This document shows, piece after piece, positions 56 through 5,714 of a DNA stretch of 5,714 nt (position 1 is the first letter of the stretch; each line of letters starts with the position of its first letter). The DNA lies in the IMG/VR virus record IMGVR_UViG_3300045988_000358, positions 1-5,714 of that record, one strand, 5' to 3'. The translations under genes and the position numbers were made by a program. Origin of the DNA: a virus. The notes below the pieces were generated by a model, which saw only the letters and a program-made list of their open reading frames with translations, was not told where the DNA came from and ran no database searches.

Positions 56-544
56 GTCTCGGAAAAATTCGTTCCAGATCATGACATATGCTCGGACTGG
101 CAGTGCGTTGACTGTGAAAACTCCCTTTATTTTTGTCGGCACTCCCATGTAGTCTAAAATCGAACCTTCTCTTGGCGCTGTTTCTTCACCTGTGCCGTTT
201 ATGATGATTTTTGGGATTTCATATGTCTTTGTTGGCATCCATGGCGTATCTTCTACCTCTCCCATGAACTGTTTGAAATGATCCCACAGAATTCTACTAG
301 GACAATAGAAATAGTAGAAGTCAATGAATGCATCATCCATCACCGGATATTTCGGTGTGGTCATTCTAATGATTGCTGACGTGTCCACGCTAAATGTGTC
401 GCCCGGTAATACTTCGTCTACGTAAAACGGAATCAGTTTGCCGGAATCAAATGTTGTGAGAATAGTCTGGTCACGGTTGAACCGCGTTCGACTTGCTTTC
501 ATTTCTGGAATTTGATTGAAGTGTCGTTCATTGTTTCGGTTCAT
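1..544 (-). CDS. VP1: Major capsid protein VP1 (Microviridae F-protein family), N-terminal part. The CDS continues at 5659 on the circle. The full CDS is complement(join(4515..5659,1..544)), 1689 nt, 562 aa.
   Basis: Hand translation from ATG 544..542 gives MNRNNERHFNQIPEMKASRTRFNRDQTILTTFDSGKLIPFYVDEVLPGDTFSVDTSAIIRMTTPKYPVMDDAFIDFYYFYCPSRILWDHF... The hFnqiP..RSRF.R...TTFd.G.LiPfy.dEVLPGDTF pattern is the conserved N-terminus of gokushovirus-type VP1. A strong SD (AAGGAGG) lies 7 nt upstream. The ATG overlaps the VP3 stop as ATGA. The frame joins exactly to ORF 4515..5660 (...DDEDVAY-L-DEKPTEETF...). Confidence 0.93.
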   Translation of the reverse strand, partial: MNRNNERHFNQIPEMKASRTRFNRDQTILTTFDSGKLIPFYVDEVLPGDTFSVDTSAIIRMTTPKYPVMDDAFIDFYYFYCPSRILWDHFKQFMGEVEDTPWMPTKTYEIPKIIINGTGEETAPREGSILDYMGVPTKIKGVFTVNALPVRAYVMIWNEFFRDENVGNAAVIKTDDEDVAY

Positions 545-939
545 TCTCCGCCCTCCTTTGCTTTAGGTTCTGCTTTAGCTTCTGTTTCCGCCTTTTTTTG
601 CAGTTCTTCAAGTTTCATGGCGTTTGCCTGTGCGGTCGCGATCATGCGATGATACTCATGAATGTTCTGTGGGAATTCCGTAATATCCGTGTATGTATCG
701 TTTAGTGCTCCTTCCGACAGGCTTTTCAGAAACTGTGGGTCAAAACTTGCTTTTCGGACGATGCTTTTGATATCACATTCGTCCGCATAGCTTTCAATTT
801 CCTGTTGGATATCGATTGGTTCAGTTTCTTGCAGTACTTCTTCTCCTTTCTCGTTTTTCGTCCAGACGTATTGTTTTTGGAGTTTTTCGCCTGATTCAGA
901 AAAGAAGGGCTCTCGCCCTTCTTCATATCGTTTATTCAT
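541..939 (-). CDS. VP3: Internal scaffolding protein VP3-like, 132 aa. The start is re-assigned to ATG 939..937, not 1059 as in the ORF track.
   Basis: MNKRYEEGREPFF...CDIKSIVRKASFDPQFLKSL...EFPQNIHEYHRMIATAQANAMKLEELQKKAETEAKAEPKAKEGGE. It has the size, acidic/helical character and position (immediately upstream of VP1 and coupled to it by ATGA at 541..544) expected of gokushovirus VP3. SD GGGAGGG lies 8 nt upstream of ATG 939. The track extension 940..1059 overlaps the upstream gene and is an R/S/T-rich out-of-frame artefact. Confidence 0.65.
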   Translation of the reverse strand: MNKRYEEGREPFFSESGEKLQKQYVWTKNEKGEEVLQETEPIDIQQEIESYADECDIKSIVRKASFDPQFLKSLSEGALNDTYTDITEFPQNIHEYHRMIATAQANAMKLEELQKKAETEAKAEPKAKEGGE

Positions 940-1171
940 GCGGCTTGCCCTCCCATACCTTTTCCTTGTCGTTCGTGAACGTGCCCAGCTCGTCTTCGAA
1001 CGCTGCCAGTTTGAAGCCGGTGTAGTCGCCGGGCGCCTGCCCGACAAACGTTTTTTCATCCTTTGCCATTACGTTGCACATACGTGCAAAGGTTGCATTG
1101 TTTTTGCTCTCGCCTACCCATGCGTAGCACTTTGCTACGCTATCCCACAGGCCAAAATATTCATGCTTCAT
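932..1171 (-). CDS. Small non-structural protein, VP5/ORF5-like, 79 aa.
   Basis: MKHEYFGLWDSVAKCYAWVGESKNNATFARMCNVMAKDEKTFVGQAPGDYTGFKLAAFEDELGTF... This fits the pattern I recall for the gokushovirus ORF5 family: F.i.D......f.......A.R.F, then a DY.L..lG.fD...G segment. SD AAGGAAGGA lies upstream of ATG 1171. The gene overlaps the VP3 start by 8 nt. Confidence 0.5.
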   Translation of the reverse strand: MKHEYFGLWDSVAKCYAWVGESKNNATFARMCNVMAKDEKTFVGQAPGDYTGFKLAAFEDELGTFTNDKEKVWEGKPHE

Positions 1172-1654: not shown

Positions 1655-2044
1655 TTATACCCCCTTTCTGTATTTGCTGGCGCGTGTGTCTATGTGTACC
1701 CACGTATTGTATACGATAATGCCGCATTCATACGGAATGATTTTATTCAGTTCGTTGGCAATTTCTTTTGCGGTCATGCCGTTAATTCGGATGTCTGCAG
1801 CCATACCGCGCATATGGTATGAGTACTTTGCACCGCCTACCTCTTCATTCCTTGCCGGTGTCCTGTATCCGCTGTTGATGATTACAGGCTTTCCGACATG
1901 GTTTCTGAGAATGTCCAGGATTGACACTAGGTAACTATCTATAAAAACTACCTGTGAACCGTCTTTGCAGGCGAATTCCCTTACTTTGAAGTGCTGCCCT
2001 ACTTTTTCGTTTGCGTCTGTGTCCATGATATAGCTTTTAATCAT
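1655..2044 (-). CDS. Zinc D,D- or L,D-peptidase of the M15 family (Peptidase_M15_3 / YcbK-like fold), 129 aa. The start is re-assigned to ATG 2044..2042.
   Basis: MIKSYIMDTDANEKVGQHFKVREFACKDGSQVVFIDSYLVSILDILRNHVGKPVIINSGYRTPARNEEVGGAKYSYHMRGMAADIRINGMTAKEIANELNKIIPYECGIIVYNTWVHIDTRASKYRKGV. The motifs are F..kEF.C, SGYR.p..N..vGGa..S.H..G.AaD, and vHvD. These supply the H-D-H zinc ligands of M15 cell-wall peptidases. SD GGGGGAG lies 4 nt upstream of ATG 2044. The track start at 2098 is a TTG that is actually the first three bases of the promoter -35 hexamer. Confidence 0.85.
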   Translation of the reverse strand: MIKSYIMDTDANEKVGQHFKVREFACKDGSQVVFIDSYLVSILDILRNHVGKPVIINSGYRTPARNEEVGGAKYSYHMRGMAADIRINGMTAKEIANELNKIIPYECGIIVYNTWVHIDTRASKYRKGV

Positions 2045-2069
2045 TTTGCTCCCCCGCTTTCTATTGTGG

Positions 2070-2113
2070 ATTGTATCATGTATTTTGTCGCATGTCAATT
2101 GTTTTTTGTTTTG
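2070..2113 (-). promoter_or_regulatory. Near-consensus sigma70/sigmaA-type promoter with an A-rich UP-like element. It is the probable main phage promoter.
   Basis: The minus strand reads AAAACAAAAAACAA-TTGACA-tgcgacaaaatacatga-TACAAT. The -35 TTGACA is at 2098..2093, the spacer is exactly 17 nt, and the -10 TACAAT is at 2075..2070, preceded by TGa (extended -10). The A-tract covers 2113..2099. The predicted transcription start is near 2063, about 20 nt upstream of the peptidase ATG. Confidence 0.6.
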
Positions 2114-2116
2114 AAC

Positions 2117-2130
2117 GGCGCTTTAGCGCC
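2117..2130. repeat. Short GC hairpin GGCGC-TTTA-GCGCC. It contains the first copy of the CGCTTTAGCG motif.
   Basis: A perfect 5-bp inverted repeat with a 4-nt loop lies directly upstream of the UP-like A-tract. CGCTTTAGCG (2119..2128) recurs exactly at 2325..2334. Confidence 0.7.
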
Positions 2131-2190
2131 TTGCCGTGCGGAGCGCATGCGGAGCTCGGCTAAATCCATTCCTTTTTAGCGCTGTGCGCG

Positions 2191-2303
2191 TTTTCAACAC
2201 TTTCAACACTTTCAACATGTTTTCAACAAAATGTTGCACAATGATTTTCGTCATTTTGACGGACTTTCAACAATTCAACAATTTTTCAACAAAATTTTCA
2301 ACA
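2191..2303. repeat. Iteron array: eight copies of TTCAACA (extended consensus TTTTCAACA; TGTTGAAAA on the coding strand).
   Basis: TTCAACA starts at 2193, 2202, 2211 and 2222 (block 1, spacings 9, 9, 11) and at 2266, 2274, 2285 and 2297 (block 2, spacings 8, 11, 12). A degenerate ninth copy, TTCAACT, is at 2351..2357. A partial inverted copy, TGTTGCA, is at 2232..2238. Confidence 0.9.
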
Positions 2304-2441
2304 GCATTTTTTGCTTTTTATTTACGCTTTAGCGTTAAATTTTAGTACTTTTCAACTTTTCCACTACCTCTACTACTACTCCTACAACAAGTTATATATT
2401 TTACGGCGCTTGTGAGCTTGCGAACAATAGCGCTGAAGAGC

Positions 2442-2484
2442 CGCGCGTGCGCGCGTGCGCGCTTCGCGCGCGTGTGCACGCGCG
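2442..2484. repeat. GC-rich imperfect palindrome that alternates pyrimidine and purine (potential cruciform/hairpin, Z-DNA-prone).
   Basis: 2442..2460 pairs with 2466..2484 across the loop gcttc. This gives 19 stacked positions: 16 Watson-Crick pairs and 3 G.T pairs (2451/2475, 2453/2473, 2456/2470). 2442..2462 (21 nt) and 2466..2484 (19 nt) are each perfect Y-R alternations made of CG, TG and CA steps. Confidence 0.85.
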
Positions 2485-2544
2485 ATAAAGGTATAGCTAT
2501 TTGATAGACTGAATAGATTGATACATGGATTCTTTAAATGGTAA

Positions 2545-2578
2545 TAGCCCAGTACCTTACTTGATAGGTACTGGGCTA
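2545..2578 (-). terminator. 13-bp perfect stem-loop 19 nt downstream of the VP4 stop. Candidate end-of-operon terminator or ssDNA structural element.
   Basis: TAGCCCAGTACCT (2545..2557) and AGGTACTGGGCTA (2566..2578) are exact reverse complements around an 8-nt loop. On the coding strand the stem is followed by TTACCATTTAAAG, which is only a weak U-tract. Confidence 0.35.
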
Positions 2579-2596
2579 GGTGACACCATGACACTG

Positions 2597-3616
2597 TTAA
2601 AGTGTCCCTTTTTTCTTCATTTGCTTCTTTATCACTCTCTCTTTTGTTTTGCATTGTTCTGCAAAGTCTGCGTTTTCGTACTTTAGTCGGTTTTCTGCGA
2701 TTGCCGCTTTCTGCCTGTTCTGTTTAATTCTCCACAATCTTTGTGGGTTTTCAGCTTCCATCATTTTTTCATAATAACGTGGAATTTGTGCGTGTTTGCC
2801 GTTTGTGCATTGGATATACCCTCGCTTCCAGATTTCTGCTTTGTGTTCTTGATAGTAGTGGTCTCCTAGACCCGGTTTAAGGCTCATACATGCGAATGGC
2901 TTTGCTTGCCCTAGTTCGTAGTATGCATTTGCTTTTTTACCGTCTATCTCGTACATTTTTTTTGTGACGTATCCTGCAACATATCTATATGTTTCTGGCA
3001 CTGCTTGTGCTATCTGTATTTGACCCATGCCCCATAGGTCTTCTAGCCATTTGCTTGTGAAGTATCCGTTGTGTTGTATTTTGTATAGGTGTTCTAGGTC
3101 TGTTGGCTGCCATCCATACAGTATCATGTGATAATGCGGTCTAGCTGTCTGTTCTCCGTACTCTCCCGCTATAAAATAGCGTAATTTGCCCTTATAAGCC
3201 TTTCTGAGGCGTTTTAAGAACTTTTGAACGTCAGTATACAGTAACGTTTGGACGCTTTCAGGGCGCTTCTCTCCCGGCTTCCAGACGTATTGCACTTTTC
3301 GCATTATTTCACCTGTGTTTACTATCATGCCCGGTACATGGTCATCGTCATAAGTTAATGTTATAAACCAGACTTCTTCTTTTGGATAATCTCGTGCTTC
3401 TAATTCTATTCGTGTTGTCCAGTCCTCTCTTTGTCTGATTCTGCATCCGATGCACTGCCCGCATGGTATCAACATGACATCTTTCCTATACATCAAATCC
3501 TCATATTTTAGCTGTCTTCCCGATATTTCGGAAAAGCGGGAGAGTGAATACACCCTCCCGCTGATATTTTTATTGTTCGGGTTGTACAGCCTTATTAATG
3601 GCTTGTAACAACTCAT
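2597..3616 (-). CDS. VP4: Replication initiation protein VP4 (HUH rolling-circle endonuclease, phiX174 gpA family), 339 aa.
   Basis: The N-terminus is MSCYKPL. There is a Cys cluster (PCGQCIGCR), RCR motif 1 (FITLTYDD), the HUH motif (RPHYHMILYG) and a double-tyrosine catalytic motif (YVAGYVTKK; compare phiX174 A, YVAKYVNKK). The ATG overlaps the VP2 stop as ATGA at 3613..3616. Confidence 0.93.
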   Translation of the reverse strand: MSCYKPLIRLYNPNNKNISGRVYSLSRFSEISGRQLKYEDLMYRKDVMLIPCGQCIGCRIRQREDWTTRIELEARDYPKEEVWFITLTYDDDHVPGMIVNTGEIMRKVQYVWKPGEKRPESVQTLLYTDVQKFLKRLRKAYKGKLRYFIAGEYGEQTARPHYHMILYGWQPTDLEHLYKIQHNGYFTSKWLEDLWGMGQIQIAQAVPETYRYVAGYVTKKMYEIDGKKANAYYELGQAKPFACMSLKPGLGDHYYQEHKAEIWKRGYIQCTNGKHAQIPRYYEKMMEAENPQRLWRIKQNRQKAAIAENRLKYENADFAEQCKTKERVIKKQMKKKGTL

Positions 3617-4476
3617 CTTAGATAATCACCTGGCTTTCTCTTTTCTCCGTATGCTCCAGTTTTGTCCTGCGGCTTCATGCCCCTACTTTGTTCTTTGACT
3701 TTTCCCGTTTTTTCTGTTGCTTTTTCGATTGCTTTGCTTGTGTCGTTTCCGACTTCTGTAAGTGCTTTTTGCAGTCCGTATGGCGTCATGTGTGTCGAAC
3801 TAAGCATCTGCTGCCAGCTTTCTGCTGCATTATACCAATCACTTTTACTCCAGCTTGAGCTTGAGTATGCATTTGGTACAAACCCACCGCTTCTGCTTAC
3901 TCCTAGTGCGCTACTGCTTGCTAAACCCATGCTTGCACCGCTGATTGTTCCTGCACTTCCTCCTGGTGTGCTTGCGCCGCCGTTTGAGAACGCTAAGATA
4001 GGGTTAAGTCCTGCCTTTCGCATGTCTTCAACTGCTCGCTGGTAACTTGTATTGCTCATGTGCTCTTGCCATTCACGGTTTGCTAGTGCTTCTGCACTGT
4101 TGTAGTTCATTGCTACGCTGTTTTCAATATGGTTGTATACGCCTTGCATGATTGCTTGTAAGGTGTTGTATCCCATTTGTTTTAGCATGCTTTGGCTGTT
4201 ATATTTACCTTGCATGGCAGCTTCTTGCCCTTGGTATGCGTATGCCTGTTTAAGCCAGTCATTTACCTGTTGGATGTTTGTTCCGGCTTGGCTTCCACTC
4301 TCTGAGTGTCCACCGCCTTGGCTTGTGCTCCCGCCTTGGCTTTGGCTGTTGCCTGTCTGACCCCATCCACCAAAAGCTCCAGCAACGTTTTTTGCTGCTC
4401 CGGCGATTGTTCCGACCGTATTCGCTACGTTTCCTGCTACGTTTAGTGCTGTTAAGATTCCTGATAATACTCCCAT
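3613..4476 (-). CDS. VP2: Minor capsid / DNA pilot protein VP2, 287 aa.
   Basis: The N-terminus is Gly/Ala/Val-rich and hydrophobic (MGVLSGILTALNVAGNVANTVGTIAGAAKNVAGAFGG, with a 12-nt tandem gctacgttt repeat at 4424..4444). An S/Q/G low-complexity tract follows. The conserved core HMSNTSYQRAVEDMRKAGLNPILAF matches the sntayQRa..Dm..AGLNP.La signature I recall for gokushovirus VP2. The gene lies directly after VP1. Confidence 0.85.
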   Translation of the reverse strand: MGVLSGILTALNVAGNVANTVGTIAGAAKNVAGAFGGWGQTGNSQSQGGSTSQGGGHSESGSQAGTNIQQVNDWLKQAYAYQGQEAAMQGKYNSQSMLKQMGYNTLQAIMQGVYNHIENSVAMNYNSAEALANREWQEHMSNTSYQRAVEDMRKAGLNPILAFSNGGASTPGGSAGTISGASMGLASSSALGVSRSGGFVPNAYSSSSWSKSDWYNAAESWQQMLSSTHMTPYGLQKALTEVGNDTSKAIEKATEKTGKVKEQSRGMKPQDKTGAYGEKRKPGDYLR

Positions 4477-4478
4477 TC

Positions 4479-4504
4479 AAAAATAGCCCGGATTTCTCCG
4501 GGCT
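4479..4504 (-). terminator. Intrinsic-terminator-like hairpin between VP1 and VP2: an 8-bp GC-rich stem, a GAAA loop and a T5 run.
   Basis: The coding strand reads TAA-gaaa-GGAGGA-AGCCCGGA-GAAA-TCCGGGCT-A-TTTTT-GA-ATG. The stem is 4504..4497 / 4492..4485, the loop is 4496..4493 and the T-run is 4483..4479. It follows the most highly expressed gene, as phiX174 terminators follow its structural genes. Confidence 0.5.
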
Positions 4505-4514
4505 TCCTCCTTTC

Positions 4515-5714
4515 TTACAGTTTGTACAAGCCCGGTACGCTGTACAACGGCATCCGTCTTGTGGTTTTGTTTGCTACGCGTATTGCGCCGAAAAATTGCG
4601 GCTCGTCCTGTACGATGAGTGTGCGTGCAATTTCTTCTTTTCCTTCTGCCATCCATCCTTGCGAGAGTGTCGGTACGGTTGAATAGTTGTCGGCATAGTG
4701 CCAGAAGTCCAGCGTTCCTGTTGCGTTGCTTCGCATTTTACCGGATACCCGGTTAGGCTTCATTCTGTAGTCTGCCCATGCTTCCTGGTATCCGAAGGTT
4801 TCATCATCTGTATTTGAGCCGGTCAACATGATTTCTTTCTTTTTGACAGGCTGTTCACCTAAGTTTGCGAACTGCGGCACGTAATAGTCGAGCCTGTCTC
4901 TTCGACTCCAAAAACGTTCCAAGCCTTGCTGATAACTGTGATTGTGCCGTACACAACATACACCGATTACAAAACCGTGCTCTTCGAACGATTTGGTAAA
5001 ACTGCTTTCGTTGATTGGCGTTACTGACATTGCACCGGTTTCGCCGATAGGTGTGTCTGTATCGGCTTGCTGTCCGCTGGTCTGCACGATTTGGTTCATG
5101 TTGACATGGTATCTTCCACCGCCAAGGTATTCCGGAATTTGTACAGTTTTATCCGAGATAACCACATTCCATAGTGCTTGTACCTGTTCGCGGTATCTGC
5201 TGCCACCGCGTGCAAGTTCTTCGTAGTACTGTTGTACTGCTACGGCTTTTCTCAAATCGTTGATGGTTGCTGCGTTTACTCCTCCCAGGTCCGCACCTAA
5301 GAATCCACCTTTTTGTACAGTGCCTAGGCTTGTTGATGCGCCTGAAACATATGCAGCGTTTGGGTTGCTCTCTGTTCCTACTGAATTATATATTTTTGGT
5401 TCTGCTGTGGTTACTCCCGTTGCTGTACTGTTCAAGAAAATGTCATTGCTTGGTGTCAACTTCTTTTTCAGGTCGGCGCTGGCGAATAGGTTTACTGGTG
5501 CATTGCCTTCTATCGTCAGTGGCACTGCCGGCCCGCGCTGAGGATAAGGCAAACAGCTGGTAAAGTAGTCGTGGAATTTGTTTACCGGTAAGCATCTGCC
5601 ACCTCTTCTGGCTTCCGATAGGGTTTTTTCAAATGTTTCTTCGGTAGGTTTTTCATCCAAGTATGCTACGTCTTCATCATCTGTTTTAATTACTGCCGCG
5701 TTGCCTACGTTTTC
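4515..5714 (-). CDS. VP1: Major capsid protein VP1, C-terminal part. The unique sequence is 4515..5659. 5660..5714 repeats 1..55 and remains in the open frame.
   Basis: The 381-aa ORF ends ...RRMPLYSVPGLYKL with TAA at 4517..4515. The M at the track start is a TTG (5660..5658) that is really an internal Leu codon. There is no stop between 5660 and 5714, and the frame is continuous with 1..544. Length and conserved N-terminus fit the Microviridae F/VP1 capsid family. Confidence 0.93.
   Translation of the reverse strand, partial: ENVGNAAVIKTDDEDVAYLDEKPTEETFEKTLSEARRGGRCLPVNKFHDYFTSCLPYPQRGPAVPLTIEGNAPVNLFASADLKKKLTPSNDIFLNSTATGVTTAEPKIYNSVGTESNPNAAYVSGASTSLGTVQKGGFLGADLGGVNAATINDLRKAVAVQQYYEELARGGSRYREQVQALWNVVISDKTVQIPEYLGGGRYHVNMNQIVQTSGQQADTDTPIGETGAMSVTPINESSFTKSFEEHGFVIGVCCVRHNHSYQQGLERFWSRRDRLDYYVPQFANLGEQPVKKKEIMLTGSNTDDETFGYQEAWADYRMKPNRVSGKMRSNATGTLDFWHYADNYSTVPTLSQGWMAEGKEEIARTLIVQDEPQFFGAIRVANKTTRRMPLYSVPGLYKL
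5660..5714. repeat. Terminal redundancy, copy 2 (identical to 1-55).
   Basis: Exact 55/55 identity with the window start. Confidence 0.95.

Follow-up and report, generated by a model that had tools for sequence, protein, structure and literature searches.

The window, a 5,714-nucleotide stretch analysed over its full length, begins and ends with the same 55 bases and is therefore a complete circular genome of 5659 nt. All recognizable genes lie on the minus strand. VP1, the major capsid protein (562 aa; Phage_F), runs from 544 to 1 and wraps to 4515. VP2, the DNA pilot protein, lies at 4476→3613 and VP4, the replication initiator, at 3616→2597. The peptidase gene (2044→1655, stop codon included) encodes a single-domain M15_3/M15A protein of 129 aa (14.6 kDa, pI 9.1). 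It is followed by ORF40 (1653→1531), which encodes an acidic helical 40-aa protein that is not a membrane protein and has its Shine–Dalgarno (SD) sequence within the 3'-terminal part of the peptidase gene, and by ORF74 (1526→1299), which encodes a conserved hydrophilic protein of 74–75 aa and starts at ATG 1526 rather than at TTG 1586. A highly basic 40-aa protein (1315→1193), VP5 (1171→932; Phage_ORF5) and the VP3 scaffold (probably 939→541; Chlamy_scaf) complete the series. A circular genome of ~5–6 kb with VP1, VP2, VP4, VP3 and VP5 on one strand is of the gokushovirus type within the Microviridae, in agreement with the microvirus origin given in the initial annotation. The nearest deposited genomes are those of human, pig and monkey gut gokushoviruses (76–86% nucleotide identity). 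The present genome is a distinct variant, with a top whole-genome nucleotide identity of ~85–86% and a top VP1 identity in IMG/VR of 82%. An Rfam scan of the whole window gave nothing significant.

ORF40 and ORF74 were considered as lysis accessories and rejected. Neither contains a transmembrane segment or matches a known family. ORF40 occurs in about two thirds of the relatives, at times elsewhere in the genome, and is not an obligatory partner because it is absent from the remaining third.

The gap between VP4 and the peptidase gene is a non-coding control region of ~500 nt (2099–2596, minus strand). Its elements are a perfect 13-nt hairpin, a GC-rich palindrome, about nine GTTGAAA repeats and the hairpin GGCGCTAAAGCGCC (2117–2130). 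Folded as ssDNA, the region gave z = −3.9 against shuffles, and its repeat part is conserved above the level of the coding genes. A sigma-70/SigA-type promoter-like site, known from its consensus match alone, lies at 2098→2070 on the minus strand and consists of TTGACA (2098–2093), a 17-nt spacer and TG-n-TACAAT (2078–2070); at 11 of 12 consensus positions, the match is the best in the window. The peptidase gene is thus the first gene after the promoter in this genome, as had been proposed. Of 51 relatives, 27 have the same pattern 5' of their peptidase; many of those that lack it carry a non-membrane ORF or coding sequence directly 5' of the peptidase. The start codon ATG 2044 is kept in the 51 complete relatives (129 or 130 aa), and a longer ORF from TTG 2098 is an artefact, since that TTG belongs to the −35 hexamer of the promoter-like site. 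The SD sequence GGGGGAG (2049–2055, minus strand) ends 4 nt 5' of the peptidase ATG. Strong SD sequences also precede most other genes of the genome. A terminator-like hairpin with a T-run (4485–4504, minus strand; 8-bp stem with 6 GC pairs) separates the stop codon of VP1 from the start of VP2. Given the promoter-like site, the SD sequence and this hairpin 3' of VP1, the peptidase is apparently co-transcribed with the structural genes. The promoter and terminator layout, read from consensus patterns, contains no sign of delayed peptidase expression.

Translation of the minus strand from 2044 to 1655 reproduces the 129-aa protein quoted in the initial annotation, and its designation as an M15 zinc peptidase was borne out by profile searches. 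The protein matches Pfam PF08291 (Peptidase_M15_3) with an E-value of 2.6e-23 and 82.7 bits (gathering cut-off 23.2) over profile positions 2–108 of 108, and PHROG 894 ('endolysin') with an E-value of 2.4e-44; a weaker Pfam match is to Peptidase_M15_2 (MepK-like). The quoted SGYR...S.H..G.AaD...vHvD-type motif is present as S58-G-Y-R61, S75-Y-H77-x-x-G-x-A-A-D84 and W115-V-H117-I-D119, and the metal ligands H77, D84 and H117 are intact. Residues S58, R61, H77, D84, W115, H117 and D119 do not vary among 46 distinct microvirus sequences or in an alignment of ~35 homologues that includes the phage/prophage clade. The dN/dS values against relatives are 0.05–0.28, mostly 0.05–0.17, which corresponds to strong purifying selection. 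Judged from its sequence, the peptidase gene is functional. The exact 129-aa protein is already public in NCBI, IMG, ENA and Logan (the IMG name is YcbK/DUF882 family), and deposited relatives are annotated as 'peptidase M15'.

The AF2 model of the peptidase (mean pLDDT 78.5, core >84) was compared with the PDB using Foldseek. The top match was PDB entry 1LBU (E-value 8e-5, 26% identity over 94 columns), which was also the top solved structure by sequence search (E-value 9e-5). The next matches were Hedgehog N-domains, VanY, ChiX, LysECD7, VanXYc, LdcB and LysB4, which correspond to the LAS fold; the probability was at least 0.96 for 1LBU, the Hedgehog N-domains, VanY, ChiX and LysECD7. VanY and VanXYc are distant structural matches (TM-score ~0.44–0.48). 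The Pfam models of VanX and VanY were unmatched even at E-values up to 10, with hits to M15_3 and M15_2 only. The score against the NCBIfam vanY_BG model was negligible (12.6 bits against a cut-off of 400), and the NCBIfam MepK match was weak (45 bits, far under the equivalog cut-off). The subfamily placement for which the initial annotation had called is therefore, by profiles and structure, M15_3/M15A with M15_2/MepK-like affinity and not VanX/VanY. The nearest characterized relatives all act on the assembled wall; they are a secreted DD-peptidase, holin-dependent endolysins and the MepK L,D-endopeptidase family. The secreted DD-peptidase and the MepK family have their site of action outside the cytoplasm.

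Transmembrane and signal segments were sought by Kyte–Doolittle (KD) hydropathy only, as a simple stand-in for TMHMM and SignalP, using the mean over 19 residues and a threshold of 1.6. By this measure the N-terminus of the peptidase (MIKSYIMDTDANEKVGQHFKVREF) is hydrophilic and has no Sec or SAR segment; the start is conserved and there is no upstream extension. Among ORFs of 20 aa or longer on the coding strand, in all three frames of the circularized genome, none reached 1.6 over 19 residues. The lack of an export signal and of a holin-like segment on the coding strand, both claimed at the outset, thus held under the hydropathy scan. The highest coding-strand values were 1.59 for a 27-aa ORF within VP1 (336→253) and 1.29 for the VP2 N-terminus. 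The former was discarded as a chance occurrence, as the hydrophobic stretch is lost in relatives. The scan was extended to 50 complete circular relatives found via the peptidase and 23 found via VP1, giving 74 genomes with the window included. On the coding strand of these 74 complete genomes there was no conserved holin-like segment, and the VP2 N-terminus was the sole recurrent hydrophobic segment. The ~40 N-terminal residues of VP2 (4357–4476, minus strand) are glycine/alanine-rich and hydrophobic (MGVLSGILTALNVAGNVANTVGTIAGAAKNVAGAFGG), with KD values of 1.29 here, 1.73 in L051 and 1.53 in L212. This segment may be the source of a membrane lesion. Of the two parts of a canonical holin–endolysin system, the genome encodes the signal-less enzyme of a muralytic family and, by hydropathy, no small membrane protein (holin). 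The peptidase lacks the N-terminal hydrophobic segment of signal-peptide and SAR endolysins, and a small, usually overprinted membrane protein of the amurin kind was not found in this genome.

A small membrane-active product that escapes recognition might still serve as the holin, encoded by ORF43 (2254→2123, MTKIIVQHFVENMLKVLKVLKTRTALKR...) or by an overprinted or complementary-strand gene. The 43-aa product of ORF43, which lies 5' of the promoter, would be strongly basic (pI 12) and amphipathic, and its first 30 residues are found again in 31 of 51 relatives. However, conservation of the region extends to all three codon positions, the GTTGAAA repeats run on 5' of the ATG, indels shift the frame past about residue 30, and the ORF lacks an SD sequence and precedes the promoter. 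A cis-acting DNA element accounts for this pattern better than a gene does. The complementary strand offers many hydrophobic ORFs (597 in 23 genomes) because it is T-rich, and a complementary-strand ORF beside a peptidase gene was described by Roux et al. (2012; PMC3394797). Nevertheless, the antisense ORFs vary or vanish among the relatives. The longest in this genome, the plus-strand ORF 938–1426 (162 aa), lies antisense to VP5 and the basic protein with its codons aligned to theirs; together with the other antisense ORFs it was rejected as compositional, the ends being variable or the ORFs absent in 51 relatives. Codon-aligned antisense ORFs are a known compositional artefact. The 45-aa predicted membrane protein of the microvirus Ebor (PMC11980548) counts in favour of a small partner; the 27-aa ORF within VP1 of this genome is not hydrophobic in relatives. 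A hidden partner of either type is considered highly improbable.

The closest non-microvirus homologues of the peptidase (40–52% identity) are almost all from Clostridia genomes or their phages. They are carried by the Faecalibacterium phages FP_Toutatis and Lelie (annotated as endolysin and peptidase), by cultured Faecalibacterium prausnitzii, F. intestinale, F. tardum and F. langellae, and by Oscillibacter, Lawsonibacter and many Acutalibacteraceae, Oscillospiraceae and Eubacteriales MAGs. The Clostridia phage and prophage homologues are single-domain proteins of ~137 aa that have no signal peptide and are located in lysis cassettes. In FP_Toutatis the product of the adjoining gene has 131 aa and two transmembrane segments, and the gene after it encodes a protein with a C-terminal transmembrane segment; other prophages have a Holin_SPP1 gene two genes 3' of the homologue. 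A small same-strand ORF containing a transmembrane segment, by the same crude hydropathy criterion, was found within 1.5 kb of the homologue at 37 of 45 loci. Because these homologues are also signal-less and stand in lysis cassettes, the absence of a signal peptide from the microvirus peptidase is a property inherited from holin-dependent endolysins, and it is no evidence for a cytoplasmic function. Compared with the phage/prophage clade, the microvirus clade has a deletion of seven residues just before the W-x-H ligand, which could alter the specificity of the peptidase. An adaptation of the microvirus enzyme in charge or hydropathy relative to the prophage clade was also considered and dropped, as no difference was found.

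The initial annotation had suggested that the peptidase hydrolyses D-Ala-D-Ala-containing precursors in the cytoplasm, as VanX and VanY do. As an 'enzymatic amurin', it would remain in the cytoplasm and hydrolyse stem-peptide precursors with or without D-Ala-D-Ala (UDP-MurNAc-pentapeptide and lipid II at the inner face), so that the wall is starved and growing cells lyse without a holin. Such a role would accord with the 74 complete genomes that have neither export signal nor membrane partner, with the strong promoter and SD sequence, by which plentiful enzyme would be made in the cytoplasm as soon as transcription begins, with the D-Ala-D-Ala-cleaving carboxypeptidase activity of the top solved-structure relative, 1LBU, and with a fold common to VanX, VanY and VanXY. 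Against it stand the unmatched VanX and VanY profiles and the structural distance from VanY and VanXYc. Furthermore, the homologues at 40–52% identity have identical catalytic residues and are placed in holin-timed cassettes, an arrangement that would be hard to explain if the enzyme were lytic in the cytoplasm; a recombinant PF08291 endolysin could be produced and was active on exposed sacculi; and the microvirus and prophage clades are alike in charge and hydropathy. The precursor-hydrolase idea is unsupported, because the closest homologues are endolysins beside holins and the VanX/VanY profiles are unmatched; the 1LBU enzyme is moreover secreted. We regard this reading as unlikely.

All complete relatives identified via VP1 (73–82% VP1 identity) carry a peptidase, and three incomplete contigs do not. 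In several of these relatives the peptidase is 44–51% identical to that of the window with a VP1 identity of ~75%. This combination of low peptidase and high VP1 identity suggests allele replacement by recombination, which has been described in other microviruses (Kirchberger et al., 2022; PMC9239249). Two peptidase-bearing contigs of 13.2 and 10.4 kb were rejected as prophages and are tandem or chimeric microvirus assemblies, one of them fused in the middle of VP1 to a DUF2079 gene. A search of species-representative bacterial genomes for a VP1-related prophage returned 31 pattern matches and no VP1 relative. Gene-transfer affinity and SD usage are the two indications of the host, and they point to a Clostridia-type bacterium. 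Some gut Microviridae clusters have been tied to Clostridiales via CRISPR spacers (Shkoporov et al.).

The explanation that we prefer, and consider probable, is that the peptidase is a captured endolysin that serves at the egress of a gut gokushovirus clade. The protein would be a single-domain M15A/M15_3 (LAS-fold) zinc enzyme that cuts peptidoglycan stem peptides or cross-links. Its gene would have been captured horizontally, without the holin, from the holin–endolysin cassette of tailed phages of Clostridia (Faecalibacterium, Oscillospiraceae, Acutalibacteraceae) and then fixed in the clade. The transcription unit would comprise, in order, the peptidase, ORF40, ORF74, the basic protein, VP5, VP3, VP1 and the terminator, and the peptidase, as the first gene of this structural-gene unit, would therefore accumulate in the cytoplasm beside the virion proteins. 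Signal-less like its tailed-phage homologues, the enzyme would reach the wall only after something else had breached the cytoplasmic membrane. The analysis establishes the enzyme family, the intact active site, the purifying selection, where the gene came from, its fixation in the clade and that it has neither signal peptide nor transmembrane partner; we infer that the peptidase acts on the assembled wall at egress. Speculatively, the breach could be made by surplus VP2 inserting in the membrane through its glycine-rich hydrophobic N-terminus, by a generic lysis function that gokushoviruses without a peptidase must already have, or by a factor of the host or of a resident prophage. This missing step is an argument against the endolysin model: there is no established route to the wall without a holin, a signal or SAR.

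Use of the enzyme in the virion was weighed against release by an endolysin. A few copies in the capsid could open a Gram-positive-type wall at entry, a role at egress being optional. Tailed phages have M15A domains within some of their large baseplate or virion proteins, the peptidase gene is apparently co-transcribed with structural genes, and a tail-less particle of 25–30 nm facing the wall of a presumed Clostridia host would gain from a wall hydrolase. Neither VP1 nor VP2 is fused to the peptidase, however, and a capsid-binding extension is not recognizable. A virion enzyme would also have to find room in a T=1 capsid already filled by VP2, the basic protein and 5.7 kb of ssDNA, where little volume should be left. 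In the sole microvirus with proteomics, the wall hydrolase was present in virions at trace level (PMC11980548). An entry or dual-use role is accordingly judged improbable.

The peptidase gene is in itself ordinary and already described, and the interest of the genome lies in the question of the missing holin and in the probable Clostridia host. An abundant gut clade with a fixed, recognizable endolysin and no visible export is a tractable system for finding the membrane step and identifying the host. Should that host prove to be Faecalibacterium or a relative, a gut bacterium associated with health would be the prey of these phages. A bolder version, to which we give only a small chance, is that the clade lyses a Clostridia host using an endolysin without a holin, either because VP2 or another structural protein breaches the membrane or because the peptidase is a cytoplasmic 'enzymatic amurin'. 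Lysis by either means, if true, would be a strategy undescribed for any phage group and would establish tail-less ssDNA phages on Clostridia.

The presence of a peptidase in these genomes is not new, as the initial annotation had allowed, and has been in print since 2012. Roux et al. (2012) reported M15_3 peptidases in five human-gut gokushoviruses and six alpaviruses, found that four gokushovirus peptidase genes group with Faecalibacterium, drew attention to the holin neighbours in bacterial genomes, noted one complementary-strand ORF adjoining a peptidase gene, proposed an endolysin role in contrast to phiX174 E and speculated on Gram-positive hosts (PMC3394797). Kirchberger and Ochman (2020; PMC7062461) noted that gokushoviruses have no peptidoglycan-synthesis inhibitor or equivalent of phiX174 E and that some have gained peptidases. 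Peptidases were later treated as lysis-associated accessory genes, with a peptidase or amidase conserved in several microvirus families (Kirchberger et al., 2022; PMC9239249). The endolysin interpretation is also given in 10.1101/2022.02.15.480533, and M15 peptidases are also present in marine Occultatumvirinae. The general statement that small ssDNA phages use no muralytic enzyme is therefore out of date (PMC3394797; PMC9239249; Ebor Gp7, PMC11980548). A keyword search of the literature on microvirus peptidases returned no treatment of how the enzyme leaves the cytoplasm, and the systematic lack of a transmembrane partner across 74 genomes is, as far as the earlier papers on these peptidases were covered, not reported in them.

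The window phage resembles phages that encode amurins (phiX174 E etc.) in having a small genome and having to lyse its host with minimal coding capacity. The amurins themselves are small membrane proteins, often overprinted, that act against MraY, MurA or MurJ, whereas the window protein is a soluble enzyme and no such ORF was found. The microvirus Ebor (Gp7 with Gp1) likewise has a small wall hydrolase, a likeness that does not imply M15 membership of Gp7; peptidoglycan degradation by Gp7 has been verified in vitro, and only traces of it are found in virions (Bardy et al., 2025, mBio; PMC11980548). Ebor differs in belonging to another subfamily, in its alphaproteobacterial host and in listing a 45-aa predicted membrane protein that the window genome lacks. 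The zinc D-Ala-D-Ala carboxypeptidase of Streptomyces albus G (1LBU; MEROPS M15A) is matched in its catalytic core only and, unlike the window peptidase, is a secreted enzyme of 213 aa with an additional N-terminal wall-binding domain. The endolysin of Burkholderia phage ST79 (PF08291, 'peptidase M15A'; ligands H77, D84 and H119) is likened to the window peptidase by family and ligand pattern (H-x6-D ... W-x-H) alone, and its muralytic activity on exposed sacculi was determined experimentally (PMC5025407). ST79, unlike the window phage, is tailed and infects a diderm host, and its endolysin works with a holin, LysB and LysC. The endolysins of Clostridia tailed phages (FP_Toutatis AUV56799, Lelie orf35 and prophage copies) share the catalytic residues, the length class and the absence of a signal peptide with the microvirus enzyme, but they adjoin holins or small membrane proteins and keep the seven residues before W-x-H. 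The M15_3 peptidases of human-gut Gokushovirinae (KX513876, KX513868 and the MG945xxx series) are encoded by the same gene, in viruses of the same group and habitat, at 62–86% identity.

The two ends of the window are identical over 55 nt (positions 1–55 and 5660–5714), and this terminal direct repeat shows that the window covers an entire circular genome, 5659 nt in length. The gene for VP1, the major capsid protein, is interrupted by the window ends (544 to 1, then continuing to 4515) and is read as 562 continuous residues once the repeat is removed. On the same minus strand, the VP1 stop is separated from the start of VP2, the DNA pilot protein, by a strong terminator-like hairpin at 4485–4504, which has an 8 bp stem with six GC pairs and a T-run. 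A Shine–Dalgarno sequence (SD) of its own is absent from VP2.

Two small conserved minus-strand genes, each with a strong SD, are situated immediately 3′ of the peptidase gene: ORF40 (1531–1653), which encodes an acidic helical 40-mer, and ORF74 (1299–1526), the product of which is hydrophilic. ORF40 is placed differently in some relatives and is missing from about one third of them; family matches were sought for both products and none was found for either. The mechanically called ORF of the scaffold protein VP3 (541–1059, minus strand, 172 residues) is probably too long at its start, since the PHROG match begins at residue 41, the SD GGGAGGG lies upstream of the Met41 codon (939) and VP3 in relatives has 132 residues.

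The plus (non-coding) strand holds a hydrophobic ORF of 162 residues at 938–1426, counterparts of which, with variable ends, occur in approximately half of the relatives. It was rejected as a gene on account of these variable ends and of its position codon-aligned and antisense to VP5 and to the 40-residue basic protein. Given this alignment, the ORF is most likely to be compositional in origin.

Approximately nine direct repeats of (T)GTTGAAA(A/G), with roughly helical spacing, were located on the minus strand at 2190–2360. The array is present in 31 of the 51 complete relatives compared, among which the repeat stretch looks better conserved than the coding genes, and some substitutions are concerted between neighbouring repeats (GAAAGTG to GAAACTG). 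The arrangement resembles that of iterons or of an array of protein-binding sites and is possibly part of an origin. Superposed on the repeats is a minus-strand ORF of 43 residues (2123–2254; MTKIIVQHFVENMLKVLKVLKTRTALKRNG...), the peptide of which is amphipathic and cationic (pI 12) and is the only one encoded by the genome with a membrane-active appearance. Residues 1 to ∼30 are found again in 31 of the 51 relatives; beyond this point the frame is shifted by indels. The ORF shows conservation at all codon positions, is without an SD and is probably not a gene.

A GC-rich palindrome, (CGCGCGTG)n, with 20 nt arms lies at 2442–2484, and a perfect 13 nt inverted repeat with an 8 nt loop (2545–2578) lies a short way beyond the 3′ end of VP4, the replication initiator gene. 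As single-stranded DNA, the 500 nt intergenic region folds far more strongly than shuffled sequences (z = −3.9); together with the palindromes, this folding would fit a complementary-strand origin. No significant Rfam match was obtained for this region.

Two long related contigs are probably assembly chimeras and not prophages: L001 (13.2 kb) carries two different microviruses in tandem, and in L002 (an ENA scaffold of 10.4 kb) a related microvirus is present in 1.6 copies and passes, midway through VP1, into the gene for a DUF2079 membrane protein.

In eight relatives (L181, L212, L196, L206–L208, L188 and L193) the peptidase is only 44–51% identical to that of the window despite a VP1 identity of ∼73–76%, which suggests that the lysis gene was swapped by recombination inside the clade. 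Compared with the Clostridia phage and prophage clade in alignment A1 of the peptidase and its homologues, the microvirus peptidase clade lacks seven residues at residues ∼111–115 (window ∼1700–1715). Here, ...RYPVKAGRPAGWVH of the phages and prophages aligns with ...VY-------NTWVH of the microviruses, directly N-terminal to the third zinc ligand, and the loss could change the substrate cleft of the peptidase.
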